Shown: positions 4,348-64,000 of the stretch, one piece after another | How the letters are laid out: the number at the start of each line of letters is the position of its first letter | Numbering within the stretch: position 1 is the first letter of the stretch | Assembly: GCA_963717465.1 (NCBI GenBank) | Contig: OY970340.1 | Span: 1,600,001 to 1,664,000 of the forward strand | Length of the DNA: 64,000 bases | Reading direction: 5' to 3' | Origin: Candidatus Bathyarchaeota archaeon | GTDB lineage: Archaea; Thermoproteota; Bathyarchaeia; Bathyarchaeales; Bathycorpusculaceae | The notes under the pieces: model-generated | Told to the model about the DNA's origin: nothing | Databases searched by the model: none | Seen by the model: the letters and a program-made list of their open reading frames with translations, nothing else | Translations under genes and position numbers: made by a program

Positions 4348-4349
4348 TG

Positions 4350-33899: not shown

Positions 33900-33915
33900 A
33901 TAAGGAGGTAAAAAA

Positions 33916-34635: not shown

Positions 34636-34675
34636 AAAATATAACGAATAAGAGTGACTTCAGACGGAGGGAAAC

Positions 34676-35566: not shown

Positions 35567-35576
35567 GAGAAATAAA

Positions 35577-36743
35577 ATGAGTGCCTCACATGAACTAGAA
35601 AAATCTGCAACGGCATACGCTTTAGATGCCGTTAAAATGGATAAACAAGGCCAAAAAGGCAGAGCAATAACCCTTTATCAGAAAGCAATTGAGAATCTCT
35701 TGCAGCTTGTTCAATTATATCCTGAATATGGTCTGAACAAAGTTTATGTTCAGAGAGCAATTGCTTACCAAGAACGAATTAAAGCCCTTCAAGGAGCAGT
35801 TTCATCAAATGAAATGCGGGAAGAAGCAATCGACGCTGAAGGTGTACCCAAAACGCCTGAGATCAATGGAAAAGCAGCCGAGGAATTAATCGTTACTGAA
35901 AAGCCGATGGTTAACTGGGCTGAAGTTGTCGGTTTAGATCCTGCTAAAAAGGCAGTTAAAGAAGCAATAGTTTATCCTGTGCAAAGACCTGATCTGTTTC
36001 CGCTTGGTTGGCCGCGAGGAATTTTACTTTTTGGTCCTCCTGGCTGCGGTAAAACTTTGCTGGCTGCTGCTGTGGCTACAGAGATTAACGCGAACTTTTA
36101 CTCGATTGATGCAGCTTCGGTTATGTCTAAGTGGCTTGGTGAAGCGGAGCAGAATGTCGCAAAACTTTTCGGGTCAGCCCGTAAATCCTCAAATGAAGGT
36201 AAGGCTGCTATTGTGTTTGTTGATGAGTTGGATTCACTTATGGGTCAGCATGCAAATGAAGTAGGCGGAGAAATTCGTGTTCGCAACCAGTTCCTTAAGG
36301 AAATGGATGGCATAGTGGATAAAGGAAAGAACTTGCATGTCTATGTTATTGGCGCGACGAATAAGCCTTGGGATTTAGATTGGGCGTTTATTAGGCGTTT
36401 TCAAAAGAGAATTCTTGTTCCTCTTCCAGATAACTCAACAAGACTAAGTATGTTAAAGCTTTATTCAAGTAATCTTAAGATTGATGCAGATGTTGATTTG
36501 TGTGAGTTAGCAAGGCTTTCCGAGGGCTTTTCGGGAAGTGATATTCGTGATGTTTGTCAGTCAGCTCAGTTGTCACTTATCGGCGAGTTCTTTGAGTCTG
36601 GAAAAGCTCAGGATAAGGAGGCAAAGCCGCGGTTGTTAACGATGGCCGATTTCCGCCAAATCCTAGAAGAGCGCAAGCCAAGTGTCTCGTTAGATATGCT
36701 ATCGCAGTATAATAGATGGTTTGAGGCTTTCAAAGCCTTATAA
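35577..36743 (+). CDS. cdvC: Vps4-like AAA+ ATPase CdvC
   Basis: N-terminal MIT domain; GPPGCGKT, SKWLGE, FVDELD, ATNKPWDLD and RRFQKRI motifs. Confidence 0.93.
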   Translation: MSASHELEKSATAYALDAVKMDKQGQKGRAITLYQKAIENLLQLVQLYPEYGLNKVYVQRAIAYQERIKALQGAVSSNEMREEAIDAEGVPKTPEINGKAAEELIVTEKPMVNWAEVVGLDPAKKAVKEAIVYPVQRPDLFPLGWPRGILLFGPPGCGKTLLAAAVATEINANFYSIDAASVMSKWLGEAEQNVAKLFGSARKSSNEGKAAIVFVDELDSLMGQHANEVGGEIRVRNQFLKEMDGIVDKGKNLHVYVIGATNKPWDLDWAFIRRFQKRILVPLPDNSTRLSMLKLYSSNLKIDADVDLCELARLSEGFSGSDIRDVCQSAQLSLIGEFFESGKAQDKEAKPRLLTMADFRQILEERKPSVSLDMLSQYNRWFEAFKAL

Positions 36744-44330: not shown

Positions 44331-44939
44331 ATGAAAAAAAGAAGAATAGGTTTTTTAATTTTCTTTCTCGAGGTTGCAGTTTTAATTCTAATCCTGATTT
44401 ATAGTGCGGAGTTGTTGACTGAAGGTTTTTCGGTTCAAAGTGCAATAAACAGTCCAAATCTATCAATATCAACTTCAAACGAAAAAGTAACGATTAATGC
44501 TGATTTATTACCCAACGCAACGTCGTCTCCGACGCCGACTCCTTCTCCCAGCTCATCTCCAAGTCCTTCCCCGTCCGCAACGCCAACCCCCTCGCCAAGT
44601 GCGACTCCCTCGCCAAGTGCGACTCCCTCACCGACTGTGACTCCCGCACCGAGTGCAACTCCAAATCCAACCCCTACTCAAACACCAACTCCGACAAGCA
44701 TTCCCAAAACTACGCCTTCCCCTTCACCTTCGCCGTCGCCGACGCCAAGCGTGTCTTCAGTTACCCCAACTCCTTCACCAAGCGTTGACCAAGCATCAGT
44801 CTCACCAAACCCTAATGCTCTATCACCGAATAGTGAATACGGAATTAGCGCTTATTATTGGGCAACATTGGTAGCGGCAGTGACAATTATTTTTGTGGTT
44901 ATCGCTACGTCAGTCTTTAAGAAGAAGCAGATTAAATAA
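44331..44939 (+). CDS. Surface protein with Pro/Thr/Ser tandem repeats and N- and C-terminal TM anchors
   Basis: (TPSPSA)n tract with an exact 18-bp tandem unit near 44590-44625; C-terminal TM followed by KKK. Confidence 0.75.
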
Positions 44940-45069: not shown

Positions 45070-47469
45070 TCATTCTTTGGAGGATATTGGTTGAACTTCT
45101 TGTTTTGCGTTGATCTTTTGCATGAGGTTTTTTCTGACGTCTTCTTTTAGTGGTCCCATTTTCGAAATTCTATTGTTGAATACTTCAAAGACGTTTATTA
45201 TTTTGTTGTATTCTGGGAGCGTAGTCGAATACGATATTATCCGCATCGGTTCGATATTGTAAGCGCTTAAATCTTTTTTCAACTGGTTGGTATATTCCCG
45301 CAAGGCGTCTTCGCTGAACACGCCGCCATGATCTTCAAACATTATAACACCGTCAGCTCCATAAGCAAAAGCGTGCAACAAATGCTTCAAGCCTATACGT
45401 CCTGTACTGGGAACTCTTATTATTTTGACGTTTGCTGGGTAAGTTGCTCGGCTTTGTCCTGCTAAATCTGCAGCTCCATAGGCGATTTCTTTTTCAAGAA
45501 ACGCTACTAGCTTTGGTGTCATGCTGTAATCGCTGACACTGTGAATTTGAGCCATTAACTGTTCTTCAGTTGAATTATTGAGGTTGATTGCTTCTTTTGG
45601 ACACTTTGGCACGCAGATTCCGCATCCAATGCACGAAATAGAATTGACGGTTATGGCTTTCGATGACTTTTCAATCGCTGAGACTGGGCATACTTTTATG
45701 CATATTTCGCAGCTGTCACATTTCTTCGGATCTATGTATGCCACTTCTGGGGAGATTGAGATTTCACCTTTGCCCAAAAACGTAGCTACTCTTGACGCAA
45801 CTGCCGACGATTCTAAGGTTGTCTCTCTGATATCTTTTGGACTTACAGCGCACCCGGCGATGAATATTCCTTCTCGTTGACTATCAACTGGTTTTAGCTT
45901 GTAGTGCTTTTCTACGAGGAACTCGTCTGATCCAATCTGAATTCCAAGTTTTTTAGCTAATTCCTGAGCACCTGAAGCTGGAGTAATTCCGAGAACTAGC
46001 ACAACTAAATCGAAAACTCCTTCAATGGGGCATCCGACAAGGGTATCCTCTGCTTTTACTAATAAATCGCCGCTCTTTAATGGTAAAATTTCGGCTACAC
46101 GCCCTCTAACAAATTTTACGTTATGCTCTCTGGCTTTAGCGTAAAACTCTTCGTATCCCTTTCCATCAGCTCTTATATCAGTGTAGAAAATCCATGGTTC
46201 AGCGTCTGGCACTACTTTTTGAACCAACATTGCTTGTTTAATTGAAGCCATGCAGCCAATCTTACAGCAGTGCTCCACGCCGCCAAGCTCTTTATTCGTC
46301 ATTCGGCTGCCTACGCAAAGGACAAAAGCAACTTTCTTTGCGACTTTCTTATCTGAAGGCCTTTTCATCTCCTGACCTATAAGTCGTTCAAGCTGCAAGT
46401 TGGTTATTACATCTGGATTTAAGCCGAACTTGTATTCCCCAAATTTCTTTGCATCAACAAGTTCAAAGCCTGTTGAAGAAATTACAGAACCAACATCAAG
46501 TTCAATATTTTCTTCCTTTTGGTTAAAATCAATGGCTTTGCCTTTGCAGAATTTCTCGCAGAGTCTGCAAACTCCTTTTGTTAAATATAGACAATGCTCT
46601 TTATCGATTACATACGTCTTTGGGACTGCTTGCTTAAAAGGTGTATAAATGGCTTTTCGAGTTGACAAATTAGCATCAAATTCGCTTGGTACATTGACTG
46701 GGCAAACCTTTTCGCATTCGCCGCATGCGGTACAATTGGCGGCATTAACAAATCTTGGGCTTTTCTTGATTAAAGCTCGGTAGTTTCCTGGAGATCCCTC
46801 AACGGCTTGTACTTCTGCCATTGGAATAATTTTGATGTTAGGATGTTGCGCAACGCTTACCATTTTTGGCGTCAATATGCATTGTGAGCAGTCCAAGGTT
46901 GGGAAAGTTTTGCTTAGTTGAGCCATGTGTCCGCCTATGCTTGGACTTCGCTCCACTAAGTATACTTGATAACCTTTATCTGCAATCTCTATCGAAGTGG
47001 TAATGCCTGCAATTCCGCCTCCAATGACAAGAGTGTCTTTTTTCACTGGAATTGCCTTGGCAGTTAAGGGTTCCAAGTAGCGAGCTCTCGATACTGCGCT
47101 GCGAATTATGTCGATGGCTTTAGAGGTTGCTTCGTCTTTGTTTCCGTGAACCCAACTGCATTGTTCTCTGATATTTGCCATTTCGAGCAAGTAAGGGTTT
47201 AAACCTGCTGCTTCTACGACACGTCTAAATGTGTCCAGATGCATTCGCGGCGAGCAGGATGCTACAACGATTCTGTTTAATCCGTTTTCCTTAATGCCTT
47301 TTTTGATCATTTCTTGCCCTGGGTCACTGCATACGTATTCGTATTTTTCTACGACTTTTACGCCGTCAAGTTTTGAAACAGCTTCTTTTACCTTGGCAAC
47401 GTCAACTGTGTCGCTTATGTTTCCTCCACAGTGGCAAATATAAACTCCGATCTTTGCTTTTTCAGTCAA
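45070..47469 (-). CDS. hdrA: Heterodisulfide reductase subunit A fused to an MvhD-like C-terminal domain
   Basis: GVYICHCG.NI, ASCSPRMH, NIREQCSWVH, IGGGIAG, KTFPTLDCSQC, ferredoxin motifs, CVGSR...CCKIGC, DIRA.GKGYEEFY; MvhD-like tail (YGAADLAG...YP.NVKIIRV...GADGV). Confidence 0.95.
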   Translation of the reverse strand: MTEKAKIGVYICHCGGNISDTVDVAKVKEAVSKLDGVKVVEKYEYVCSDPGQEMIKKGIKENGLNRIVVASCSPRMHLDTFRRVVEAAGLNPYLLEMANIREQCSWVHGNKDEATSKAIDIIRSAVSRARYLEPLTAKAIPVKKDTLVIGGGIAGITTSIEIADKGYQVYLVERSPSIGGHMAQLSKTFPTLDCSQCILTPKMVSVAQHPNIKIIPMAEVQAVEGSPGNYRALIKKSPRFVNAANCTACGECEKVCPVNVPSEFDANLSTRKAIYTPFKQAVPKTYVIDKEHCLYLTKGVCRLCEKFCKGKAIDFNQKEENIELDVGSVISSTGFELVDAKKFGEYKFGLNPDVITNLQLERLIGQEMKRPSDKKVAKKVAFVLCVGSRMTNKELGGVEHCCKIGCMASIKQAMLVQKVVPDAEPWIFYTDIRADGKGYEEFYAKAREHNVKFVRGRVAEILPLKSGDLLVKAEDTLVGCPIEGVFDLVVLVLGITPASGAQELAKKLGIQIGSDEFLVEKHYKLKPVDSQREGIFIAGCAVSPKDIRETTLESSAVASRVATFLGKGEISISPEVAYIDPKKCDSCEICIKVCPVSAIEKSSKAITVNSISCIGCGICVPKCPKEAINLNNSTEEQLMAQIHSVSDYSMTPKLVAFLEKEIAYGAADLAGQSRATYPANVKIIRVPSTGRIGLKHLLHAFAYGADGVIMFEDHGGVFSEDALREYTNQLKKDLSAYNIEPMRIISYSTTLPEYNKIINVFEVFNNRISKMGPLKEDVRKNLMQKINAKQEVQPISSKE

Positions 47470-47484
47470 TTTTCGTTACATCTC

Positions 47485-48372
47485 TTATGCTTTAAGTTTG
47501 TTAACGAGAGTTTGAACTTGGGTTTTATTTTTGTCCAGGCCGATCTCTGCTGGGGTCATACCGAGCGCTAAACCCAAGAGTTGCGTTAGAAAGACTACTG
47601 GTAACTCGTATTTAGTTTTCAACTTTTGATTTATTTCAACTTGTCCGTTATCAAATTGGAGATGACAGAAGGCACATGGTGTGACTACACAATCTGCTCC
47701 AGCACTAAGCATGTTGTCAATCTTTGACCTGGTGAAATCAAGGGCAACATCAATGGCGTCAGATCTCACTCCGCCGCCTGCGCCGCAGCATTGCATTTTA
47801 TCCTTGTAATCAACGCTTTCTGCACCCAATGTTCTAACAAAATCATCGATTATAGTTGGGTTTTCAGCTGAACCGTGTTTTCTCACCGCGCTTGGCTTTA
47901 AAAAGTGGCAACCATAGTGGACTGCAACTTTGATGTTGCTAAGTGGGACTTTTACCTTTTCTTTAATAGCTGAGTAGCCAACATCTTCGTTTAAAACTTC
48001 AATTATGTGTTTTACTTTTGTTGTTCCTTTATATTCTCTATTGACTTCTTTGAAGATATCATTCACCTGATGCTTCAATTCGTCATTTTCCATTAAGAGG
48101 CAGTTAGTCTCCTGAAGTGACCCGTAGCAGCCATTACAGGTAACTGCTATATCCTTATTCATTTGCTCGGCGATAGTAAGGTTTCTTGCACTAATCACAG
48201 CCCATGTTAACATGTCAAAAGAGCCGAAGACTCCTGGAGCAGGGCAGCATGAAGCCCCCTTCATATCCAGTAATTCTATTCCAAAAACTCCAAGTGTTTT
48301 TTTGGTTGCTAATTCAATTCCAGGGTAACGGTTGGGCGCAATACATCCAAGAAAGTAAGCATACTGTTTCAT
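47485..48372 (-). CDS. hdrB: Heterodisulfide reductase subunit B
   Basis: YFLGCIAPNRYPGIE, SCCPAPG, CNGCYGSL, HYGCH, CCGAGGG and CAFCHLQFD motifs. Confidence 0.96.
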   Translation of the reverse strand: MKQYAYFLGCIAPNRYPGIELATKKTLGVFGIELLDMKGASCCPAPGVFGSFDMLTWAVISARNLTIAEQMNKDIAVTCNGCYGSLQETNCLLMENDELKHQVNDIFKEVNREYKGTTKVKHIIEVLNEDVGYSAIKEKVKVPLSNIKVAVHYGCHFLKPSAVRKHGSAENPTIIDDFVRTLGAESVDYKDKMQCCGAGGGVRSDAIDVALDFTRSKIDNMLSAGADCVVTPCAFCHLQFDNGQVEINQKLKTKYELPVVFLTQLLGLALGMTPAEIGLDKNKTQVQTLVNKLKA

Positions 48373-48950
48373 TTTTTAACCTCTCCCTTAACTGCTTTTT
48401 CTGCAACGAGAACCTTAAATCCTGTTTTTTCAAGTAACTTGTTTATTTCTTTAAGTCCCTCAGGATCACTGAGAGTAGTTGGCGGAACCTCTGATAGTCC
48501 CATGTTTTTTCTAACTGCTTTCATTTCATCATTAATAGGCACGGCATGCCCACTCGCCATGAAAGCTTTGGCGATTTTTCTATGTGATTCTTTTATGTTG
48601 CCATTTTTCACGGCCATGTTTCTGAGAATTCTAACTATGTCAGTAGTGTGAATGCCTCGGGGGCACCTTTCTTGACAGGTATAACAAGTAGTGCATTTCC
48701 ACAAATCATCACTCGAAAGAACTTTATCTTTTAATCCTGTCGAAGTCTCTTCAAAAATTTTTCTAATTCGCCATGAAGTTCGTCTTCCAGAGGGGCAGCC
48801 TCCGACACACCTTCCGCATTGAAGGCATTGTCTAAGTTTTTCTATTTCTTCCTTGTTATAGAATTTTGAACCAGCATCTATAACTTCATTGCGAAAATTA
48901 AATGATGCGTCTTGAATAACTTCTTTCTTTGGAGCCATCCTTATCCCCAT
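48369..48950 (-). CDS. hdrC: Heterodisulfide reductase subunit C
   Basis: CLQCGRCVGGCPS, LWKCTTCYTCQERCPR and GHAVPI motifs. Confidence 0.95.
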   Translation of the reverse strand: MGIRMAPKKEVIQDASFNFRNEVIDAGSKFYNKEEIEKLRQCLQCGRCVGGCPSGRRTSWRIRKIFEETSTGLKDKVLSSDDLWKCTTCYTCQERCPRGIHTTDIVRILRNMAVKNGNIKESHRKIAKAFMASGHAVPINDEMKAVRKNMGLSEVPPTTLSDPEGLKEINKLLEKTGFKVLVAEKAVKGEVKK

Positions 48951-49196: not shown

Positions 49197-50222
49197 ATGG
49201 ATTTAAAAGAAAGGTTTCTTGCTTCAACGAAGCGTAAACCAGTTGATAGAGTTCCTTGTGCAAGTCCCCTTCAAACGGCAACAGTAGATTTAATGAATAA
49301 ATGTGGCGCGAGTTGGCCTGAAGCTTTTAGAAATGCAGAGAAAATGGCTACTCTTTCCGCTGCAGCTTACGAAATAGGCGGAATTGAAAGTGTTCGAGTG
49401 CCTTTTGACTTATCCGTCGAGGCAGAAACGTTGGGCTGCAAAATTAAACCAGGCTTGGTCAACGTCCAGCCGCAAACATTAGAAGGCATAATTAATAGTC
49501 CCGATGATGTTGGCAAAGTGAAGGTTCCTGATCCGAAAACAGCTGAACCTATGGCAACAGTCTTAAAAGCAGTAAAGATTCTCAAAGGAAAGTATCCCGA
49601 CAAAGTACCTATTATCGGTGCAGCTTTGGGTCCCATGACGCTAGCCGGACACGTTAATGGTATAGAAAAATTTTTGGTGGCCTTGAGAAAGCAACAGGAT
49701 TTTGCCAGATCAATTCTTGATTTTGCAACGCAAGTTTCAACAACTTATTCGCTTGCGCTAGTTGAAGCTGGCGCTGACGTCATAAGTTTAATAGATCCCT
49801 CAGCAACTGGGGAAATATTAGGGCCAAGGTTCGAAAAAGAGTTCGCTACTCCATACACCAAGAAAGTGGTTGAGCAAATACACAAAGCAGGAGTACCTGT
49901 AATCTTACATATCTGCGGCAAATCTACCATTATTTGGGATTCTATGGTTGAGACTGGATCAGACATGCTCAGCATCAGTGAGCAAGTTGACATGGCTGAA
50001 GCAAAACAAAAAATAGGCAGCAAAGTTGCTCTTGCTGGCAACATTAATCCGATTCAGACTTTGCAGTTTGGGACACCGCAAGACGTGGAGAAAGCAGTCA
50101 AAGAATGCATAGAAAAGGGCGTAGATAACCTTTGCCCAGGTTGCGGATTCACACCGAATACATCACTAGAAAACATGAAGAAAATGACAGATGCGTGCAG
50201 AGCTGTAGGAGCCAAACGATAA
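49197..50222 (+). CDS. mtaA: Methylcobamide:CoM methyltransferase (MtaA/MtbA-like, UroD fold)
   Basis: QTATVDLM...WPEA, RVPFDLSVEAE, Zn-binding LHICG and PGCG motifs. Confidence 0.8.
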   Translation: MDLKERFLASTKRKPVDRVPCASPLQTATVDLMNKCGASWPEAFRNAEKMATLSAAAYEIGGIESVRVPFDLSVEAETLGCKIKPGLVNVQPQTLEGIINSPDDVGKVKVPDPKTAEPMATVLKAVKILKGKYPDKVPIIGAALGPMTLAGHVNGIEKFLVALRKQQDFARSILDFATQVSTTYSLALVEAGADVISLIDPSATGEILGPRFEKEFATPYTKKVVEQIHKAGVPVILHICGKSTIIWDSMVETGSDMLSISEQVDMAEAKQKIGSKVALAGNINPIQTLQFGTPQDVEKAVKECIEKGVDNLCPGCGFTPNTSLENMKKMTDACRAVGAKR

Positions 50223-50680
50223 ATTCAAAGGCATGCAGCTTAAACAGCCCTCTCTTTTATTTTAGCGGTATGTAACTGCTCAGAAATGTTTATAATAAAT
50301 TTTCGCAAATTTCGTAATTTTCTAACCCTTTCTCAACATTTTTGCCAGCATGTAGTGTGTATTATTCGTCAATAAACGAAATACATACCTTTCCATGCAC
50401 GTTTAGTGTTTTGGCACTCTATAAGGTAGGTCCGTGAGCGTCGCGCAGCCTTTCGGCAGTGCGCGCTAAATTGCGTCTTGTTAAGTTCAATAGTTGCTCA
50501 AAGAGTTTATTATAACCTTGAAGGATGTATTCAATGACTTCTCCTTTATCATTAAAGACAAGCTCACAGACTTGAACGTCTACATTAAGCATTCTAAAAG
50601 TTTAAGACAATTATCAAAACTATTTTGGAAGATATCTTGAACGATTTGTTTTTCTTCCATAAATCCCAATAATTAATTAT

Positions 50681-50722
50681 TTCTGATTAGGTACTTTATT
50701 AATTCTGATTAGGTATTTTATT
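50681..50722 (+). repeat. Two-copy tandem repeat (22-bp period)
   Basis: TTCTGATTAGGTACTTTATT-aa-TTCTGATTAGGTATTTTATT. Confidence 0.8.
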
Positions 50723-51165
50723 TTTTAGGTTTAATCTAATTAACATGACAAAACCACAAGCAGAGATGGCTTGAATTGACCTTGTTTTAGTCCAAGCGAA
50801 TGCAAAAACTGGCAGGAAGAAGAGGTGAAGCATTCCACTTTGGATTAAATGTCAATTCAACCAGCCTCATATTTTTGGATTGGGTTTAGTGCGCACTCCA
50901 AATCAATTGTCTTTTGCGTTATGAAAATATCGTAAGCTGCTTTTACGCATTGATTGGCTGCTTCAAAAATATTTTGATTTGAACTATGATTAAATGGTTC
51001 TGTAGGTATTAATCCCTAAATATGTCTTGGGAGAAATGAGTCTTGAAATCGACATTATTGGATTTTGACCTTTTTGGTTTAAGTCGGTAGGCCTAGCGCT
51101 GCTACAATATATTTAATTAATGTTTACTTAAAGGCTTAAATATCAGTAAAATTTCCAAAGCATTT

Positions 51166-52215
51166 ATGACAACTCCATATGATCGATTGATTAATGTTTT
51201 GAGTGGTAAAAAAGCTGAAGTTGATCGACTTCCCGTTATAAACCCTGTCTCCACTTACACATATGATTCTATGAAAGCATATGACGCCTATTGGCCAGCT
51301 GCCCATAGAGATCCTGAAAAAATGGCAAAGCTAGCCGCAGGGCTCCATAGACTTGCAGGCTTAGGTAACGTGACAGTTCCATTTGAATTGACCTTCGAGG
51401 CTGAGATTCTCGGTGCCCCAGTGCAGTTTTTCGAAGACAAGATAAAATGGCCCACTGTTAAGGGTTTTATTGCTCATGAAGTTTCTGACCTTAAATTTCC
51501 CAAGGATATATCAACGGCTGGAAGAATACCAGTTGTTACTAATGCTATTAAAATATTAAAAAGGGAATTCGAAGGCAAAGTCCCAATAATTGCGTACATA
51601 AATTGTCCATTCACCAGCATCAGTAGCTACTTAGTTGAACCAGTCGAATTCCTGAAATCTCTAAGACGTGAACCCGAGAAGGTTCGCGAATTCTACAAAG
51701 CATCCTACCCATTTTATGGTGAAATTGCAAACGCGTTTAAGGAAGCCGGCGCCGACATAATCACATATAGGGAAGAAGGTGTCTCACTTGACAACATCTC
51801 AATCAAGGATTTCGACGAATATGTTAAGCCATATCTCACTAAACTGATTGGTCTCACAAAGTCGCCGAAAATTCTCCACACCTGCGGTTTATGCATAAGC
51901 CGTGAAAAGGAAATTATTGGAAGGATGATAGAATGCGGTGCCGATGCAATTTCCATTGAGGAAAGGACACCAATGAAAGCAGCAAGAGAATTCGCCGACA
52001 AGGCTAAACCAGGTTATCCTATATGCGGAAATGTTGCTCCTTTTTCGGTTATACATAATGGTCCTATTGAAAGAATCAGATTAGCCGTTAAAAAAGCAAT
52101 TGATGAAGGAGTGGATATAGTATCACCTGGCTGCGACTTTTACTTGGAGACCCCGACTGAGCATGTGAAGGCTTTCGTCAATGCCGCTATTGAGTTTGGT
52201 ACACAAACAAGGTGA
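51166..52215 (+). CDS. MtaA/CmuA-family methyltransferase, paralog 2
   Basis: YWPAAH.DP.KMAKL, VPFELTFEAE, LHTCG and PGCDF motifs. Confidence 0.85.
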   Translation: MTTPYDRLINVLSGKKAEVDRLPVINPVSTYTYDSMKAYDAYWPAAHRDPEKMAKLAAGLHRLAGLGNVTVPFELTFEAEILGAPVQFFEDKIKWPTVKGFIAHEVSDLKFPKDISTAGRIPVVTNAIKILKREFEGKVPIIAYINCPFTSISSYLVEPVEFLKSLRREPEKVREFYKASYPFYGEIANAFKEAGADIITYREEGVSLDNISIKDFDEYVKPYLTKLIGLTKSPKILHTCGLCISREKEIIGRMIECGADAISIEERTPMKAAREFADKAKPGYPICGNVAPFSVIHNGPIERIRLAVKKAIDEGVDIVSPGCDFYLETPTEHVKAFVNAAIEFGTQTR

Positions 52216-52628
52216 GGAAGTCTGTCAACTTCGTTAGGGAAATCTAAAGGTAAATTTTCGAGGAAACGTTAAGGATTATAATCGGCAAACCTCTTCTTTC
52301 GGCACTTGCCAATAAGCTTGGCATGTCGAAAAGTCTTTATTTTTTCTTTACATTTTTTATATGTGTACATTACTTAGAAAAGCATGTGCTCTGTAACTTA
52401 CCTTTCAACTATTATCCTTATTGTGAAAGCGTTCGCCATGAAGAAAGAGTTGATGAATTAATCGAAAAATAAACAGTCACTTTAAGAATTTTTTACAACA
52501 TTAAGAGATAAAGGTAATACTTAACGAATTTGACAGAAATCGGCAGGTTATGGGCAAATAAAGAAGAAGTTTACAAAAAAGTAAAAATATAGGTGTTTTT
52601 TGCTAAAAAACAACAGGTGAACAAAGAC

Positions 52629-53589
52629 ATGTTTAAATTTAAATCTCAACAAAAAATTTTCAAGATAGGAAATGTGAGTATAGGTGGACAGCCGGGAGAA
52701 CTCCCGAAGGTGCTGTTCGGAACCATTTTTTATGGCAAACATAAAATCGTAGAGGACCAGAAAAAAGGCATTTTCGACAGGAAAAAGGCAGAGGAACTGA
52801 TAAATAAACAAGAAGAGCTTTCTGATCTTACTGGTAACCCTTGCGGGTTAGATGTTGTATGCATCTCGCTTGAGTCAGCTTGTAAGTTCATCGATTTTGT
52901 TGCAGAGACAACTGATTGTCCGATTTCAGCAGATATTTGGACGCCCGAGATTAAAATTAAAGTTCTAAATCATATTGCTGAGGTAGGTCTTTCAGATCGA
53001 ATCATTTACAACAGTGTGATGTCAGTTCCGTTGCCCAGCGAAGATGAACTTAATGCTATTAGAGAGTCAAAGGTTAAGTCAGCTGTAATTCTATGTTACA
53101 ACACAAAGGATCGTACGACCAAAGGTGTTTTGTCTTTGCTCAGGGGCACTGAAGAGCAAAAGGGCTTGCTGGACATAGCTCAGGGAGCAGGAATAGAAAA
53201 GCCATTAGTTGACGCAACCATCTTTACATACATTCCAAGCATAGGCGTTGGAGCTAGAGCATGTTACTTAGTAAAAGATGAATTCGGTCTTCCAGTGGGC
53301 GGTTCACCTGGAAACGCAACTACTGTTTGGAAAGAACCAAAAAAGTGGGGACAAGATATCTTTAAAGCGTGTGAAGCAGCGGCAGAAGTTGTACCTTTAG
53401 CCTTAGGCGCAGATTACCTGTTTTATGGACCAGTTGAGTCGGCCCCTTGGGTATTTCCAGCCTGCGCTGGAGTTGACGCAATGATTGCCAGCAGCAGCTA
53501 AAACTGAATTCGGAATAAAAACCTTGACGAAAGAGCATCCACTGTATAAATTATTCCCCGAAATCGTTAAAAAGTTAGACATTGAATAA
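52629..53589 (+). CDS. mtrH: MtrH-like pterin:corrinoid methyltransferase (frameshift near 53490)
   Basis: MFKFKSQQKIFKIG...IGGQPGELP..L.GTIFY..HKIV.D..KG.FD, GADYLFYGPVE; shifted tail AAKTEFGIKTLTKEHPLYKLF. Confidence 0.85.
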
Positions 53590-53609
53590 GAATAAAGAGA
53601 TGATGCAAT

Positions 53610-54650
53610 ATGGTTGAATTGACTTCTTATGACAGAGTCATGGCTGTTTTAAACGGCAAGAAAAGTTCTGTTGATAGGCTTCCTTGCATAAACTCTGTTA
53701 GTGTAAGCACGATTGATTTCATGAAGTCTTATGATGCTTATTGGCCAGCCGCACACAAAGACCCTGTGAAAATGGCCAAACTTGGCTCGGCGGCTCACAG
53801 ATTATGTGGTCTTGATAACGTGACAGTACCATTTTGTATGACAGTTGAAGCGGAGGCACTTGGAGCGGTGATTAATTTTCACGAAGACACAATAAAGTGG
53901 CCCTCAATTAAAGAATTTCACGTGAACGAGCCTTCAGATCTTAAATTTCCCAATGACGTATCAACAGCTGGAAGAGTTCCAGTCGTCATTGAAGCAATCA
54001 AAATATTGAAAAAAGAATTTGAAGGCAAAGTTCCCGTAAATGCTTACATAACACCACCATTCACGAGCATCAGCAGTTACCTAGTGGACAGCGTTACTTT
54101 CTTGAAGTGGCTGAGAGTTTCGCCAGAAAAGGTTCATCAATTCGTAAAAAGCGCTAACGATTTTTACGCAAAAATAGCAAAATTATACGAAGAAGCTGGG
54201 GCTGACATAATTACTCTTCATGAGATGGGTGCTTCTACAGATAACATATCACCGAGACATTTTGATCAATTCGTTAAGCCTTATATCGTTGACTTGATTA
54301 AGCCTTTGAAGGCAAAAACGATTTTGAACATTTGCGGAGATGCTAATATGATTGTTGACAAAATGGTTGGAACTGGTGCAAGTGCCATATCAGTAGATGA
54401 GAGAACAAAAATTAGCGGAGTTAGAAATGCAGTGGATAAGATTAAGCCAGGTTATCCTGTCGCCGGTAATTGCCCATCCTACACAGTGATACACTTAGGT
54501 ACTGTCGAAAAAATAAGGGACTATGTCAAGCAAAACATCCAAGATGGCGTTGATATTGTGGCTCCCGGTTGTGATTTTTGGCTAGAGACTTCTGTTGATC
54601 ATGTGAAGGCTTTTATTGATGCAGCCAAAGAATTTGGGAAACTACAATGA
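53610..54650 (+). CDS. MtaA/CmuA-family methyltransferase, paralog 3
   Basis: Close paralog of 51166; VPFCMTVEAE, LNICG (His replaced by Asn) and PGCDF motifs. Confidence 0.85.
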   Translation: MVELTSYDRVMAVLNGKKSSVDRLPCINSVSVSTIDFMKSYDAYWPAAHKDPVKMAKLGSAAHRLCGLDNVTVPFCMTVEAEALGAVINFHEDTIKWPSIKEFHVNEPSDLKFPNDVSTAGRVPVVIEAIKILKKEFEGKVPVNAYITPPFTSISSYLVDSVTFLKWLRVSPEKVHQFVKSANDFYAKIAKLYEEAGADIITLHEMGASTDNISPRHFDQFVKPYIVDLIKPLKAKTILNICGDANMIVDKMVGTGASAISVDERTKISGVRNAVDKIKPGYPVAGNCPSYTVIHLGTVEKIRDYVKQNIQDGVDIVAPGCDFWLETSVDHVKAFIDAAKEFGKLQ

Positions 54651-54740
54651 TAAAGAGGAATACTTTACAAAAAAGTATTTATTCCTGCAACAAAACTCAC
54701 GAAACTTAAAGAACTAATAATTTAATGGAGAGAAAAAATA

Positions 54741-55427
54741 ATGAGTGAAACTGAAATATTTAAGAAACTTTCTGATGCAGTTGATACTGGAAACGTTGAG
54801 ATGGCTAAAGAGGCTGCTAACGAGGCTATCGCTAAGGGCGTTCCAGCTTTGAAGGCGATTTTGAATGGGCTTGCAGAAGGAATGAGAATTGTTGGCGTAA
54901 AATACGAAGAAAAGGAATATTTCTTGCCTGACATGCTTGCGGCAGCAGATGCAATGTACGCTGGGATAGAACTTTTGACTCCTCATATTCCTGCGGCGGA
55001 TAGAAAATCAAAAGGAAAGATAGTTATGGGTGTTGTAGAAGGCGATGTTCATGACATTGGAAAAAACATTGTAAAAATAATGTTGACGGCTTCTGGATAT
55101 GAAATCGTGGACTTGGGCAAAGATGTGCCAACAGGCGAATTTATTAATAAAGCTAAGAGTGAAGGAGCGCAAGTAATAGCGATGTCAACGCTTATGACGC
55201 CAACGCTCATGTCTATGAAAACAGTAGAAGAAAAACTGAAAGAATCAGGAATGAAAGACACTGTTAAAACTATCATAGGCGGCGGCTCAGTAAGCGAGGA
55301 ATGGAAGAATAAAATAGGTTCAGATGCTTATGGCGCGGATTCTTCAGAAGCTGTCAGCAAAGTTAAGCAGTTGCTAGATAGTATCATGACCGCTGTAGAC
55401 GTAATGAAAAAAGATCAGAAACAATAA
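54741..55427 (+). CDS. Methyltransferase-cognate corrinoid protein (MtaC/MttC-like)
   Basis: Cap domain (GL..GM..VG.KYE..EYFLP); B12 motif GDVHDIGKN, DLGKDVP and IIGG. Confidence 0.93.
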   Translation: MSETEIFKKLSDAVDTGNVEMAKEAANEAIAKGVPALKAILNGLAEGMRIVGVKYEEKEYFLPDMLAAADAMYAGIELLTPHIPAADRKSKGKIVMGVVEGDVHDIGKNIVKIMLTASGYEIVDLGKDVPTGEFINKAKSEGAQVIAMSTLMTPTLMSMKTVEEKLKESGMKDTVKTIIGGGSVSEEWKNKIGSDAYGADSSEAVSKVKQLLDSIMTAVDVMKKDQKQ

Positions 55428-55441
55428 GAAGGTAGACTAGT

Positions 55442-57358
55442 TTGGCTCCTGAAGAAATTGAGATCGTATTTCAGCCCTATGGCAAACGAACAAAGTTTCC
55501 ATCGGGCATCAACCTTTTAGATGCCGCCAAAGGTTTAGGCATAGATTTATCTTCACTATGCTCAGGAAAAGGCACTTGCGGAAAATGCAAAATCAAGATT
55601 CAAAAAGGAGCAGAGGGTTTAAGTCCCCTCACAGAAAAGGAATCAAAGCGCCTATCCCAAGAGGAACTTGACACATCCCACAGATTAGCATGCCAAGCTA
55701 CAATAACAAACTCTGCAATAATCTATGTTCCACTAACAAGCAGAGTGGGAGTTCAGAGACTACAAACTGACGGGCTTGATGTACCAGTAAAACCCAACCC
55801 CTTCGTGAGAAAATACTATTTAGAAATGACTCAACCATCACTTCATGACATGAGGTCTGATGAAGACAGAGTTTTTGATGCATTAAACAAGGAGTACGGT
55901 CTTTCTAACGTAAAATTTGACTTTGACACCGCAAAAACTCTTCCAATAAACCTTCGAAAAGAAGATTGCAAAGCAACCGCTGTTGTCTGGAACGACAAAG
56001 AAATTATTGCTCTCGAACCTGGAAATACCTCCGATAGATGCTTTGGACTTGCCGTGGATATCGGATCTACAAAGCTAGCAGGATTCTTGATGGATCTTAA
56101 AACCGGTCAAGTTGTTGCCGTCGCAGCTAGAATGAACCCCCAAATTCCGCTGGGCGAAGATGTCATGTCAAGGATAACCTATGCTATGATGGGTGAGTGG
56201 AAAGCCATCCAGGAACTCCAAACAGCTGTTGTCTCAGGAATTAACGAAATAACTGAGGAATGCTGCAAAAAGGCAAATGTGAAAATTGAAGAAATATACG
56301 AAACCAACTTCGTCGGTAACACAGCAATGCAACTTTGTTTCCTCGGTTTCTGGTCTAGATATGTAGGCTTCTCACCTTACCCGCCAGTACTTCGAAGAGG
56401 TGTTGATGTACGCGCTGCAAGGTTAGGCTTAAAGGCTCACCCAAATGCGAATACGCACTATCTCCCGGTCATTGGAGGTTTCGTGGGAGCAGATAGTATT
56501 GCATGCATCTTAGCATCAAAACTTCTAGAAGAAGATGAAATCAAAATGATTATCGACGTAGGCACAAACACTGAAATCATGTGCGGAAATAAAGACCTAT
56601 GCATGGCTGACTCTTGTGCATCTGGTCCAGCCTTTGAAGGAATGGAAATAAAATTCGGCATGAGAGCAGCAACAGGAGCTATCGAAAAAATTAGCATTGA
56701 TCCTGATACATTGGACCTTAACTTCAGAACTATTGGAAATGCTCCTGCTGTTGGCATAACTGGATCCGCACTCGTCGACGCTCCAGCTGAGCTTCTGAAG
56801 TCTGGTATAATAAACTTGAGGGGCAACTTTGTTCCAGAAATGATGAAGAGAACTGATAGATTAAGAAAGGGATCTAGCGGCTGGGAATTTGTGATAGCGA
56901 GAAAGAATGAAACAAGCATCGGCACAGATGTCGTTTTAACCTTAGCTGATGTTAGAGCACTCCAGCAGGCAAAAGCTGCAATGCACGTTGGAGCAGACAT
57001 TCTGATGAAAAGGATGAACATTCCAATAGAGAAACTGGATAAACTGGTGATTGCTGGGGCCTTCGGAAACTATATCGACGCCGAAAACGCAAGGACAATC
57101 GGCATGTATCCTGAAGTGCCGCTTGAAAAGATCGCTTTCGTTGGAAACCTTGCTGGCACAGGTTCTAGACTTGCTTTGATTTCAAAAGAAGAAAGAGCGA
57201 AAGCTGAAGAAATAAGCAAAAAGGTAAAGTACTATGAACTTGCAGTGGATCCTGAATTCCAGACAGAATATGCGAAGTCACTGTACTTCCCGCACTCTGA
57301 CCTGGATAAGTATCCAAGCACTAAAGAATTACTGAAGAAGTTAGGTCGCATTCCTTAA
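55442..57358 (+). CDS. ATP-dependent reductive activator of corrinoid proteins (RACo/DUF4445, ASKHA fold)
   Basis: N-terminal 2Fe-2S (CSGKGTCGKC...RLACQ); DIGSTK, NPQ..G.DVMSRI, GFVGAD, DVGTNTE, ASGPAFEG and AGAFG motifs. Confidence 0.92.
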   Translation: MAPEEIEIVFQPYGKRTKFPSGINLLDAAKGLGIDLSSLCSGKGTCGKCKIKIQKGAEGLSPLTEKESKRLSQEELDTSHRLACQATITNSAIIYVPLTSRVGVQRLQTDGLDVPVKPNPFVRKYYLEMTQPSLHDMRSDEDRVFDALNKEYGLSNVKFDFDTAKTLPINLRKEDCKATAVVWNDKEIIALEPGNTSDRCFGLAVDIGSTKLAGFLMDLKTGQVVAVAARMNPQIPLGEDVMSRITYAMMGEWKAIQELQTAVVSGINEITEECCKKANVKIEEIYETNFVGNTAMQLCFLGFWSRYVGFSPYPPVLRRGVDVRAARLGLKAHPNANTHYLPVIGGFVGADSIACILASKLLEEDEIKMIIDVGTNTEIMCGNKDLCMADSCASGPAFEGMEIKFGMRAATGAIEKISIDPDTLDLNFRTIGNAPAVGITGSALVDAPAELLKSGIINLRGNFVPEMMKRTDRLRKGSSGWEFVIARKNETSIGTDVVLTLADVRALQQAKAAMHVGADILMKRMNIPIEKLDKLVIAGAFGNYIDAENARTIGMYPEVPLEKIAFVGNLAGTGSRLALISKEERAKAEEISKKVKYYELAVDPEFQTEYAKSLYFPHSDLDKYPSTKELLKKLGRIP

Positions 57359-60012: not shown

Positions 60013-60054
60013 TCTGAAAGAATATCATAATAAAACCAAAAGGTCATGATCGGA

Positions 60055-61387
60055 ATGAAGTACAAGGACAAAATAGACCTGTATAGTGAGGAAGGAAAAC
60101 TACTTGAGTCTAATGTACCTCTTGAGGCCATTAGTCCAATTTTAAACCCTGCGATTAAGAAAATAATTCATACATTGATGAGATCCGTCGCTGTTAACTT
60201 AGAAGGCATAGAGAAATCTTTGGCAAACGGAACAGTTGGCGGTGAAGGATGTAAGATTCCTGGAAGAGAACTACAACTCGACATTGTGAAAAATGCCAAT
60301 GTCATTGCAGACAAGGTTTTGGAAAAAGTCAGAGCTAAGAAAGGCGATGATGCTGAAGTTCAAATTCTAGCTGGCGGAAAACAACTCCTAGTTAAATCTC
60401 CAACTCTGAGACTCGAAGCTAGTGCTGAATACACAACATCTTTAACTAACATTGCATCAGCTGTGACGCAAACGATCATTGATGTATTCAACGTATCAAT
60501 GTTCGATGCGGATATGGTTAAAGCAGCTGTTTGGGGCAGGTACCCACAATCAATTAATCTAATGGGCAGTAATCTTGCCTCTGTCCTAGGTGTGCCACAG
60601 GCAAACGAGGGCTTAGGTTACGCTCTAAGAAACATATCCGCGGCTTATGTAGCAATGATATGCAAGAAGAACGCTTTAAACACAGCAGCCTTATCCTCAA
60701 TACTTGAACAGATCAGCAGCGTTCGAAATGGGAGACGCAATCGGCGACTTTGAAAGAATGCAACTTCTCGGACTCGCATTCCAAGGATTAAACGCTAACA
60801 ACCTCGTTTACGACCTTGTTAAGGAAAACGGTAAAACCGGAACAGTCGGCACTGTTATTACCAGCCTCGTAAAACGTGCACTCAAAGACAAAGTTATACG
60901 ACCTCTTGAAAAGAACGAATCAGGTTTTGTTACATATACTACTGACGACATGGCGCTCTGGAACGCATACGCAGGAGCTGGATTATTAGCAGCCACAATG
61001 ATAAGCCAAGGCGCAATGAGAGCTATGCAAGGAGTTTCAGCAGTAGTAGTATATTTCAACGACATGCTCGAACACGAAACAGGATTGCCCTCAGTCGAGT
61101 TCGGCAAATCCATGGGTTCAGGAGTTGAATTCTCATTCTTCAGCCACTCAATATACGGCGGTGGAAGCCCAGTCGTATTCCACGGAAACCACATCGTGAC
61201 AAGACACAGCAAAGGATTCTCCATACCTCCAGTCGCAGCAGCAATCGCACTCGACGCAGGAACAGTTTACTATACACCAGAAAAAGTCGCTGGAATAATT
61301 AGCGAAGTTTTCAGCACAATACCAGAACTAAGAGAGCCAATCGCTCATGTAGCAAAAGCTGCTGCAGAAGTGAAGGCCTCTATATAG
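60055..61387 (+). CDS. mcrB: Methyl-coenzyme M reductase beta subunit (+1 frameshift near 60711)
   Basis: [42 protein letters not shown], then [28 protein letters not shown] and [11 protein letters not shown]...[11 protein letters not shown]. Confidence 0.97.
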
Positions 61388-61399
61388 GCGAAAAAATCG

Positions 61400-61847
61400 G
61401 TGCCAAACACACCCCCTCAATTTTCTTTTAAAAATATTTCTGAAAATAACGAAGAAATCGAAATTTTTCCGAATCGTCTATTAAGCCTTGCAACTTTAGA
61501 AAAAATATTAAATAAAATTTCTAAAATTGAAGAAGTTATCTCTGTAACCTTGCAGGGTCAGCGTCTTCCTAAAGAAGAAGCTACTTGCGCTTGTGAAGCT
61601 GAAAACCAAGTTGAGAGCAGAAAGATTCTTGTGCAAAATCAGGAAATTGAAATTCACATCATGACTGGTCGAATAATTCTCGAAGTGCCAAGCCAAGAAA
61701 CTGAAAAAGTTATCAAAAAAATTAAGAAAATATCTGATCAACTGTCTTCCATTTGGCTATAGTATTAGAGTTGGCAAATTCCTTAAAAGAAACGTGTCAC
61801 TAGCTGATTATAAGAGAGAATGGTTTCAAAATATCTCCAAAAAATAA
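61400..61847 (+). CDS. mcrD: McrD (frameshift near 61746)
   Basis: IEIFPNRLL...T.EKILN, GQRLP and GRII motifs; shifted tail LPFGYSIRVGKFLKRNVSLADY. Confidence 0.88.
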
Positions 61848-61875
61848 TTCGTATCTTTAAGATTCTTAGGAGTCG

Positions 61876-62545
61876 ATGATAAAGTTGCCTGGTGGTTCTT
61901 GTCGCAGAATGGAGAAGCCTTGCATAGGCAAAAAGACACAGTTTATCGATTGCCGAGAGGTAATGGGTTTAGGTTTAGGTGGAGGATTAGCGCAACGTGG
62001 AACTCTCGCTGAAGCGTCTCCTGCAGATGTTATTGTTATAGCTATGTCACCTGGAAGAAGGCATATTACTAAACCCGTTTGCGAAATTACCTCTGCATTA
62101 AGAGAAGCTGGTATCAGTGTGAGTGTTTTGATTTTAGATGCTGGTTCAAGTGTACCACCTGATGCACCTTCCTCAAGACAAGGGTACGGACCAATCTTTG
62201 GTTTGTCTCCAGAAGAATTTGCAAAGAATTTCAAAGCATAAACTTGCAATAATTCATTTGGGAAATGTTAGAGCTCACATTGTTTATAAAGCTCGTGCAA
62301 TTTTGAGAATGGTCAATATTCCTGCGGTTGTTATTTGTCAATGTCCAGTTGATTTTGAGGATTTTGCTGAAGTCGGTGTTAGAACGCGCTTTGTAAAACC
62401 GAATGCGACTGAGGAGCAGACTCTTGGTGAGATTGTTGAAATTGTTACTGACGTGGTAAGGGGTCAAACATGCCCTCGAAGTAAACTCGATGAGATAAGT
62501 GGAAAAGTCAAGTCATCACTAAACTTATTAAGGAAAACAAAATAA
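61876..62545 (+). CDS. mcrC: McrC (frameshift near 62224)
   Basis: [22 protein letters not shown] and [16 protein letters not shown], then [25 protein letters not shown] and VVRGQTCP. Confidence 0.93.
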
Positions 62546-62596
62546 TAGTTGAAAAGAAACCATACAATAATTGAGACAAAACGGAGTGTATAGCAT

Positions 62597-63379
62597 TTGG
62601 AAAAATCAGATTATAAGCCTCAATATACCCCTGGCGTCTCCGATGTAGCTAAGAACAGAAGAAACTACATGGACCCAAAGCACAAATTGGAGAAGCTTCG
62701 CTCAATTTCTGACGAATCTCTGATAAGGTTGCTTGGGCATCGCGAGCCTGGAGAAGCCTATAAATCAGTTCACCCACCCCTTGAAGAAATGGGCGAACCT
62801 AAATGCACGATAAGGAAACTTGTTGAACCCACACCTGGAGCCAAAGCTGGTGACAGAATCACATTCATACAATTCACCGATTCTGTGTACTTCTCGCCTT
62901 TGGCACCCTACAGCAGGTGCTGGATGTACATGTCAAGATACAGAGGTGTAGACCCTGGCGCTCTATCAGGAAGATGCCCCCTTGAAATGAGAGAAAGAGA
63001 TTTAGAAGCAGTTTCAAAGGAGCTAATTGAAACAGAAGTTTTCGACCCAGCAAGAACCGCAGTTAGAGGCGCAACAGTACACGGCCACTCTTTGAGACTG
63101 GACGAGAACGGAATGATGTTTGACTTATTAAGACGCTCTGTTTACGACAAGAAGAAGCAAGAAATCACATATGTTAAAGATCAGTTGGGAGTACCGTTAG
63201 ACACGCCAATTGCACTTGGAAAACCGTTACCAGAAGAAGAATTAAGGAAAAGAACAACAATCTTCAGGGCAGACGGAACATCCATACGAAAAGATCCAGA
63301 GCTACTAAAATATATTCAAAGAATTCACACACTAAGAACAATCGCTGGTCATAACCCGGAAAAAGCCAAAGGACTATAA
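62597..63379 (+). CDS. mcrG: Methyl-coenzyme M reductase gamma subunit
   Basis: NRR..MDP..KLEKLR, LLGHR.PGE.YKSVHPPLEE, QFTDS, YRGVDPG.LSGR, RERDLE and RGATVHGHSLRLDENG.MFD motifs. Confidence 0.98.
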   Translation: MEKSDYKPQYTPGVSDVAKNRRNYMDPKHKLEKLRSISDESLIRLLGHREPGEAYKSVHPPLEEMGEPKCTIRKLVEPTPGAKAGDRITFIQFTDSVYFSPLAPYSRCWMYMSRYRGVDPGALSGRCPLEMRERDLEAVSKELIETEVFDPARTAVRGATVHGHSLRLDENGMMFDLLRRSVYDKKKQEITYVKDQLGVPLDTPIALGKPLPEEELRKRTTIFRADGTSIRKDPELLKYIQRIHTLRTIAGHNPEKAKGL

Positions 63380-63405
63380 AAAGAGGTTAAAATGAGGTAA
63401 TAATT

Positions 63406-64000
63406 ATGGTTAAGAAAGAAAAAATGTTTTTAGAAGAACTTGAGAAGAAATTCAAGGAAGATCCTACTAAAAAGACTACTACCTACTACCATTTTGGTGG
63501 CTGGAAGCAGTCAAAGAGAAAGCAAGAATTCTACAGAGCTAGCCAAAAGATCGAGAAAGAGAGAGGCATACCGATGTACTCTCCGGATACTTCACTTAGG
63601 TGGTGTACCTGTAGGTCAAAGACTTCTTATGCCCTATAAGATCTCTGGGACAGACGTTTATTGTGAAGGAGACGACTTACATTTCATCAACAACGCAGCC
63701 ATGCAGCAAATGTGGGACGACATAAGAAGGACAGTAATCGTAGGCTTAGATGCCCCGCACAAAGTATTAGAAAGCAGATTAGGCAAAGAAGTAACACCAG
63801 AAACAATAAGCGAATACATGGAAATACTCAACCACACAATGCCTGGAGCAGCAGTAGTTCAAGAACACATGGTTGAAACACACCCCGCACTAGTGTCAGA
63901 TTGCTATGTAAAACTATTCACAGGCAACGATGAGCTTGCAGATGCCATAGACAAAAGATTCGTAATTAACATAAACAAATTATTCCCCAAAGAAAATGCT
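63406..64000 (+). CDS. mcrA: Methyl-coenzyme M reductase alpha subunit (5' part; +1 frameshift near 63589; runs off the window)
   Basis: [12 protein letters not shown]...RGIPMY.PD, then my translation [52 protein letters not shown]...[11 protein letters not shown]...[37 protein letters not shown]. Confidence 0.97.

Follow-up and report, generated by a model that had tools for sequence, protein, structure and literature searches.

A predicted cluster-free MvhD domain fused to HdrA of a Bathyarchaeon, a conserved domain type also found on Methanosarcina HdrA1

In the solved complexes that join heterodisulfide reductase HdrABC to MvhAGD, to Vhu or to formate dehydrogenase (Fdh) (PDB 5ODC, 8RVU, 9SFI, 7BKB), the cluster of MvhD links the donor module to the FAD of HdrA, according to extracts of PMC13580544 and PMC13518236. 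Fusions of HdrA with MvhD are already known as type Ia; that of the HdrA2B2C2 enzyme of Methanosarcina acetivorans (HdrA2/MA2868) keeps all five MvhD cysteines (PMC5296606, Fig. S3). In the same species, growth and flux data support for HdrA1B1C1 (MA3128-3126; NF041778/80/79) a direct mechanism using ferredoxin only, in an organism without hydrogenase activity and with a donor not biochemically established (PMC4561719, in extract). Here we describe an hdrA gene of a Candidatus Bathyarchaeota archaeon located in a stretch of 64,000 nucleotides (contig OY970340.1 of assembly GCA_963717465.1, positions 1,600,001 to 1,664,000; hereafter the window) whose product ends in an MvhD domain devoid of cysteine. 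HdrA proteins fused to a cluster-free MvhD are designated HdrA* below, and the coordinates of the features are collected in Table 1.

The hdrA* frame is intact and the domain set of its product is that of a type Ia fusion as set out in the accessible text of PMC12054007, with an N-terminal cluster, an FAD domain, inserted and C-terminal ferredoxin domains and a fused MvhD. In a PDB search, residues 3-644 aligned to HdrA of the solved complexes (E 1e-193) and the tail to MvhD/VhuD chains (E 6e-12 to 2e-9). The tail is also recognised by the Pfam FlpD model (MvhD, PF02662; 84 bits for a cut-off of 22.3, E 1e-23), and its comparison with the genome's own intact MvhD gave an hhalign probability of 99.4. 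Cysteines number 29 in residues 1-640 and none occurs in the last 159 (641-799). The motifs quoted in a preliminary description of this DNA lie within this C-terminal domain, and its claim that the domain has lost its cysteines holds, on an intact open reading frame and with all ligand columns changed or deleted. Intact MvhD domains have five cysteine columns, four of them occupied by Cys in 41 of 41 domains and the fifth in 37 of 41; in the window HdrA four of the five hold E659, I662, S688 and D713, and one is a gap because the CHY loop has been deleted. Since Cys16 of MvhD is reported as an additional, non-ligand cysteine (PMC13580544, in part), the other four columns would be those of the [2Fe-2S] ligands; the window protein has E659, S688 and D713 at these positions, the fourth being deleted, and the four-cysteine signature of MvhD is absent. 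Judged from its sequence, the domain is predicted to be unable to hold a canonical [2Fe-2S] cluster. The motifs of the first half of MvhD are retained. The helix that would be equivalent to N76-L93 of VhuD, which helps to dock Vhu/Fdh (excerpt of PMC13518236), has kept neither the G-N start nor the CHY loop of intact domains, and K695-H696, E712 and P752 are marks of the cluster-free family. A search of the ESM Atlas with the domain returned only FlpD clusters, all under 0.9, which are a lead at most.

The same composition was found in a first set of 96 homologues, collected by a domain search with a word bias: all 96 lack Cys at the four alignable columns, and the CHY loop is absent from all. 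The four invariant columns are changed in 38 of 38 cluster-free domains, whereas the other MvhD domains all have Cys there (41 of 41). Matches to the domain (E<=1e-20) occur in 148 of the 401 genomes of the class and in 7 of the 120 genomes of the genus; 56 of the 147 other matching genomes were inspected and all proved cluster-free, a few with one Cys lying one position off a ligand column. An unbiased search of 1.84 billion representatives added deeper members from Baldrarchaeia/Odinarchaeota, Methanobacterium and Methanoperedenaceae, and the best 120 matches of a search started from the Methanoperedenaceae member comprised 116 cluster-free proteins, one intact and three without the domain, the named organisms among them being Methanobacterium, Methanobrevibacter and Methanocella. 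Two bacterial loci (L075, L079) also have the cluster-free domain. When the genome collection was scanned with HdrA core patterns, the best 80 of 610 matches were mostly other HdrA types.

Across 55 aligned full-length relatives, the mean identity of the fused domain is 69%, as compared with 66-79% for the other HdrA domains. A functionless domain, in decay or produced by faulty assembly, could be envisaged in a genome where many genes are split, including mcrB, mcrA and a second cluster-free HdrA* copy (G000:C1:799572-803502, L207; three frames, then its own hdrC and hdrB); because all of these are split, assembly indels are suggested. This explanation appears already refuted by the conservation data and retains next to no probability: the frame of the window gene is intact, the pattern extends to every one of the 96 homologues, the domain is conserved like the rest of the protein and its new residues are common across phyla. 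The cluster-free MvhD therefore has the appearance of an old, conserved domain family and not of local decay, and a recent lineage-specific loss was likewise rejected. In a quick tree of the domains (130 columns, cysteine columns removed, long branches present), one branch (SH-aLRT, a Shimodaira-Hasegawa-like approximate likelihood ratio test, 93, unstarred) sets all 38 cluster-free domains to one side; S688, K695, H696, E712 and P752 are common among them and rare in intact domains. In a tree computed without three divergent rows (L057, L062, L127_2515), the HdrA cores that carry the domain are scattered over three positions: a Bathyarchaeia/Asgard group (100), a methanogen HdrA1 group (96) and a bacterial pair. 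A single origin of the whole HdrA* protein was rejected on this placement and on an approximately unbiased (AU) test without the two bacterial rows, in which a union of the first two groups was weakly rejected (p 0.034). The grouping of the domains, set against the scatter of the cores, makes it probable that a single ancient module came to sit on different HdrA cores; convergence following a relaxation of selection is a possible alternative history.

M. acetivorans HdrA1 (MA3128) carries the same domain, predicted to be cluster-free as well. The protein of locus L165 is HdrA1/MA3128, because it equals, in a by-eye comparison, the 400 residues printed for the 806-amino-acid M. acetivorans HdrA in Table S2 of PMC12054007 and because the locus has the hdrA1 primer site given in PMC9963511 (both sources in part); the primer also matches two other loci of 193. 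A Methanosarcina locus of order hdrA-hdrC-hdrB (L048) passes NF041778 and has a cluster-free tail; this model is passed by 48 of the 59 Methanosarcina genomes, and the ligands are absent from 30 of 30 loci read. Extracts of PMC12054007 place HdrA1 in class A2-1, current annotation making no distinction between cluster-free domains and the usual MvhD fusions that have a [2Fe-2S] cluster, and passages of PMC6019823 describe HdrA1 as being without an MvhD extension. In the open literature searched, no paper noting a Cys-free fused MvhD was found, so that such fusions are not, as the preliminary description had allowed, already characterised as routine in the texts accessible; Fig. 8B/S8 of PMC9012536 (HdrA1 cysteine maps), a source available in part, may show the loss.

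HdrA1B1C1 resembles the window operon in its HdrA with the same domain group of cluster-free MvhD, in having hdrC and hdrB in the operon, in its methylotrophic setting and in the retention of the Cys194/Cys197 pair and of K409 (M. thermolithotrophicus numbering). It differs in its separate HdrA core lineage (39% identity), in the gene order A-C-B instead of C-B-A and in the lack of E356, which the window HdrA retains. Against the models of the HdrA1 enzyme, the window HdrA* reaches 676 for a cut-off of 1400 (NF041778) and its HdrB 169 for a cut-off of 450 (NF041780), which places neither in the HdrA1 family. HdrA2B2C2 shares with the window the domain order and a TIGR03288-type HdrB (PMC5296606, in extract), and its model NF040770 gives the best NCBIfam score of the window HdrA* (889), under the cut-off of 1100; HdrA2 was nevertheless rejected as the closest model, its MvhD cysteines being intact. 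The Mvh, Vhu and Fdh complexes have the HdrA core, an MvhD to which the last domain of the window protein aligns and methanogen-type HdrB and HdrC in common with it, whereas in the window MvhD is fused and without cluster ligands, and the operon has neither mvhAG nor fdh. The second HdrA of Methanobacteriales (NF041891, hdrA_Methbact) also has a cluster-free fused MvhD and the order hdrC-hdrB-hdrA, but its core belongs to the HdrA1 lineage and the window protein scores 687 on its model for a cut-off of 1300; no functional study of it was found in the literature searched. These Methanobacteriales operons (L046:919-6135, L050:4405-9590) are flanked by a gene for sulfur incorporation in homocysteine biosynthesis (PF01837), and as sulfide is reported to aid an M. 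acetivorans hdrA1 mutant (PMC9963511, in part) there is a hint of a sulfur link. The supposition of the preliminary description that the domain is a cluster-free scaffold on an HdrABC fed by another route stands insofar as no canonical cluster seems possible, the conservation is of a structural type and another point of entry is the best reading; it does not stand where the loss was taken to be particular to this HdrA, the family being old and including Methanosarcina HdrA1 and the Methanobacteriales HdrA.

Since the cluster is absent from the fused domain, donor entry by way of MvhD would be cut. The remaining path, from the ferredoxin domain to HdrB, is all conserved, and for this reason a ferredoxin-fed reductase of CoM-S-S-CoB, the heterodisulfide of coenzymes M and B, with a capped hydrogenase port is our best reading, held tentatively and at a little under an even chance. 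The cluster-free MvhD would form a permanent cap over the site where an MvhD docks with hydrogenase or formate dehydrogenase, and HdrA*BC would be a soluble ferredoxin:CoM-S-S-CoB reductase that recycles both coenzymes for the neighbouring methyl-coenzyme M reductase (Mcr). Electrons would pass from reduced ferredoxin to the inserted ferredoxin domain, the N-terminal shuttle cluster, Cys194/Cys197, FAD, the core cluster, HdrC and HdrB; every cluster from the ferredoxin domain to HdrC is conserved. This would amount to a reversal of the low-potential branch of the canonical enzyme, with no mid-potential input. We infer the cap function, the donor, the direction and the lack of bifurcation; by analogy, the favoured view is that the window HdrABC works like HdrA1B1C1, outside that family, and the cluster-free domain is likely the mark of a widespread class whose electrons come from ferredoxin and not from hydrogen. 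In the window subclade only (12 of 68 aligned rows), the core cluster motif C-S-x-x-C-C is shifted to C-C-x-I-G-C (46252-46269, minus strand), which may retune the cluster adjoining FAD.

Table 1. Positions, within the window, of the hdr operon, of the parts of HdrA* and of the neighbouring genes
Feature	Position	Strand	Remarks
hdrA* (hdrA fused to cluster-free MvhD)	45070..47469	-	799 amino acids, intact frame; best NCBIfam NF040770, 889 bits, below the 1100 cut-off
MvhD-like domain, no Cys	45154..45507	-	residues 655-772; Pfam, alignments
Former ligand columns	E659 45493-45495, S688 45406-45408, D713 45331-45333	-	fourth ligand loop deleted
Helix putatively equivalent to VhuD helix N76-L93	45259..45312	-	residues 720-737; equivalence from alignment
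C-terminal 2x[4Fe-4S] domain	45565..45747	-	eight of eight Cys retained; 7 invariant and 1 nearly so in 55 aligned relatives
Flavin-site residues and shifted cluster motif CCKIGC (residues 401-406)	46237..46389	-	E361 (=E356), K411 (=K409 of M. thermolithotrophicus HdrA)
Cys194/Cys197 pair (relay to flavin)	46879..46890	-	invariant in family; role from PMC13580544, PMC13518236 (extracts)
hdrB, methanogen type	47485..48372	-	TIGR03288 439 bits, cut-off 345; 15 nt upstream of hdrA*
hdrC, methanogen type	48369..48950	-	TIGR03290 200 bits, cut-off 160; 4-nt overlap with hdrB
Context: three MtaA-type methyltransferases, MtrH, corrinoid protein, RACo activator	49197..57358	+	divergent from the hdr operon
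Context: mcrB (split, two frames), small open reading frames, mcrG, start of mcrA	60046..64000	+	

The flavin site bears on a second explanation, in which the enzyme still bifurcates and FAD receives a hydride straight from F420H2, or from NAD(P)H via an attached module, the one-electron MvhD route being dispensable. The two residues that characterise a bifurcating-type HdrA, K411 and E361, are invariant among the aligned relatives, as is the Cys pair; HdrA2B2C2 of M. acetivorans does bifurcate F420H2, HdrA2 interacting with F420 (PMC5296606, in extract), and frhB is part of the operon in some relatives (L133), while a GltD/NfnB insertion is found in others (P0096, L136). The genome would moreover require an outlet for F420H2, because it has mch, two clear FrhB/FdhB-family matches and an Fpo/Nuo-like cluster, and a search for MtrA gave no match. 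However, HdrA2, the sole enzyme shown to bifurcate F420H2 in this way, keeps all its MvhD cysteines, the window operon has no F420- or NAD-binding gene and the HdrA1B1C1 data speak against bifurcation (accessible part of PMC4561719), so that we regard direct hydride reduction as unlikely.

Conserved polar residues at the old cluster site raise the further question of a non-cysteine cofactor, such as a metal ion at E659, S688, H696 and E712, which would relay electrons of a docked donor from the C-terminal clusters to the flavin. An acid is found at position 659 in 36 of 38 domains, Ser688 in 32, His696 in 33 and Glu712 in 31, from all clades; the C-terminal clusters are retained; and in the canonical enzyme the HdrA Cys pair and MvhD Asp71 hold an unidentified ligand near His68, with which H714 aligns (PMC13580544, in part). 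On the other hand, deeper members do not conserve D713 and H714, position 659 is Asn and position 696 Leu in Methanosarcina, the Asp71 equivalent falls in the deleted loop and the polar residues may just fill a cavity. Such a cofactor is in our opinion rather improbable.

The window genes are arranged in the order hdrC-hdrB-hdrA*, and a promoter and terminator scan, with models bacterial in type, found no more signals than in shuffled sequences. The genome (3.05 Mb, one contig, 88% complete, 10 FlpD matches) has seven HdrB paralogs, only that of the window passing TIGR03288 and the next best scoring 341 for a cut-off of 345. The closest HdrA* and HdrB homologues apparently have five contigs in common, which suggests that their pairing recurs. 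After the mcr genes, methanogenesis markers 3, 5, 6, 7, 8, 15 and 17 follow beyond the window; mcrG occurs in 2 of the 301 genomes of the order. A fixed pairing of HdrA* with mcr was rejected, for in the other mcrG genome (G589) HdrA* lies on a different contig from mcr, beside trxR-nfnAB, and the mcr contig has a methanogen-type hdrCB with no hdrA match within the 3.9-kb locus. As the preliminary description stated, the window contains no mvhAG; an intact mvhD-mvhG-mvhA set is located 40 kb past its end (G000:C1:1703997-1706879). A separate set that docks normally had been named as evidence that would refute the claim of another route; a separate set does exist, but it is preceded by its own unfused hdrA and hdrCB. 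Two intact HdrA-MvhD fusions are found among further intact MvhD domains of the genome.

These copies lead to a reading in which HdrA* is one half of an HdrA heterodimer, whose partner with intact MvhD and MvhAG would reduce the HdrA* flavin across the interface. In the dimer of known structure, the FAD of one protomer is served by the MvhD cluster of its partner (extract of PMC13580544), and HdrA heterodimers have been proposed for anaerobic methanotrophic archaea (ANME; PMC9012536, in part). The genome has the candidate partners just described. In the two bacterial loci the cluster-free HdrA stands alongside mvhD, and in one of them (operon L075:3327-8358) the core is almost identical to that of the unfused HdrA, which suggests gene conversion or a heterodimer. 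Against this, four genomes of a single genus (85-97% complete, fragmented) have two HdrA fusions, both of them cluster-free, and yielded no MvhD standing alone and no intact HdrA-MvhD; otherwise they have just a ferredoxin-2xMvhD protein beside mvhAG and nfnA. The window HdrA* moreover has its own HdrCB, and M. acetivorans hdrA1C1B1 and hdrA2 are regulated separately (PMC9963511 and PMC4561719, in extract); a heterodimer is therefore given only a slim chance. Ferredoxin proteins with two divergent Cys-bearing MvhD domains also occur upstream of nfnA in this genome (G000:C1:885493-886731, L008) and elsewhere (L244:10310-11476), in some genomes directly 3' of mvhAG, and are candidate hydrogenase-to-Nfn adaptors.

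Forty neighbourhoods of relatives showed no fixed partner: HdrCB, HdrD-like proteins, TrxR-NfnAB, EtfAB with acyl-CoA dehydrogenase, FrhB, fumarate-reductase-like proteins and Flx were found, and mvhAG sometimes lies near the cluster-free hdrA*. Such variety is what a diffusible carrier acting as donor would lead one to expect. An MvhA match occurs in 92 of the 147 genomes with the domain and is absent from 55, of which 26 are at least 90% complete, a distribution that speaks for the ferredoxin-fed reading; these partner and gene counts come from draft genomes and kin and are descriptive. The link with the Hox-like hydrogenase, raised in the preliminary description as a possible donor, was not borne out: this set (2388-7181, minus strand; NuoE-, NuoF- and HoxU-like, small and large subunits) is 40 kb away and the 40 neighbourhoods contain no NuoF- or HoxU-type match. 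In four loci (L245, L248, L250, L153) hdrC-hdrB is followed by fumarate-reductase-like Fe-S and flavoprotein genes and then hdrA*, with a malic-enzyme-like gene 3' of hdrA* in L153, L245 and L250; these possibly encode an Hdr-linked fumarate reductase.

Several points weigh against the ferredoxin-fed reading. A high-scoring MvhD is also present in 127 of the 147 genomes with the domain and missing from 20, and of the latter 12 were examined, some having divergent Cys-bearing domains. The normal role of the C-terminal 2x[4Fe-4S] domain is to feed MvhD; here it is retained in full and would be a dead end, and the old cluster site has conserved acidic and polar residues. The window HdrA is assigned the function of HdrA1 by domain analogy, between cores 39% identical whose union in one clade was weakly rejected in the AU test; moreover, the window clade retains the equivalents of both K409 and E356, and as E356 is lost in HdrA1 the two enzymes may differ in bifurcation. 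The mechanism of HdrA1 itself rests on physiology, and a 2018 review (PMC6019823, in extract) gives bifurcation from ferredoxin as a proposal for HdrA1B1C1. Finally, a ferredoxin sink that does not bifurcate conserves no energy, an odd property for the genome's only methanogen-type HdrB.

Other features of the genome were recorded. An HdrA-MvhD gene (G000:C1:1519900-1522484, L004) has in-frame TGA at Cys positions, and the genome has two tRNA-Sec (selenocysteine tRNA) calls and one TGA at the same aligned position in 10 of 17 molybdopterin-family matches; this genome-wide pattern is a large selenoprotein expansion. In the window, a membrane-anchored protein with a long Pro/Ser/Thr repeat and no Pfam match is encoded convergently with hdrA* (44331-44939, plus strand), and Snf7, CdvA-like and Vps4 genes form an ESCRT (endosomal sorting complex required for transport)/Cdv cluster (33234-36743, plus strand).

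Overall, the Cys loss in the fused MvhD, the link to HdrA1 and the mcr context appear new in the literature searched, the HdrA-MvhD fusion as such being known and the feature not being unique to this genome. The cluster-free domain provides a sequence mark for HdrAs unable to take MvhAG/Fdh electrons by the known route and offers a structural reason for an old puzzle, namely that M. acetivorans HdrA1B1C1 behaves like a direct sink for ferredoxin, and this in a host amenable to genetics. HdrA* also amounts to a naturally occurring knock-out, in which the MvhD cluster is gone and Cys194/Cys197 remain, and separates the two proposed jobs of this pair, the role of which is called unresolved in the accessible text of the 2026 structures. 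The finding bears on coenzyme regeneration in a rare Mcr-bearing Bathyarchaeon. It is possible, and we put it forward as a tentative proposal, that a distinct ancient module turns the donor-docking, bifurcating HdrA hub into a differently wired enzyme and defines an unrecognised class (Bathyarchaeia, Asgard archaea, Methanobacteriales, Methanocellales, Methanosarcina HdrA1 and some bacteria), whose E/D-S-H-E site may hold a non-cysteine redox cofactor, and that HdrA* is the main heterodisulfide reductase of this Bathyarchaeon, which would then have an energy scheme unlike that of Mvh-Hdr or HdrDE methanogens.

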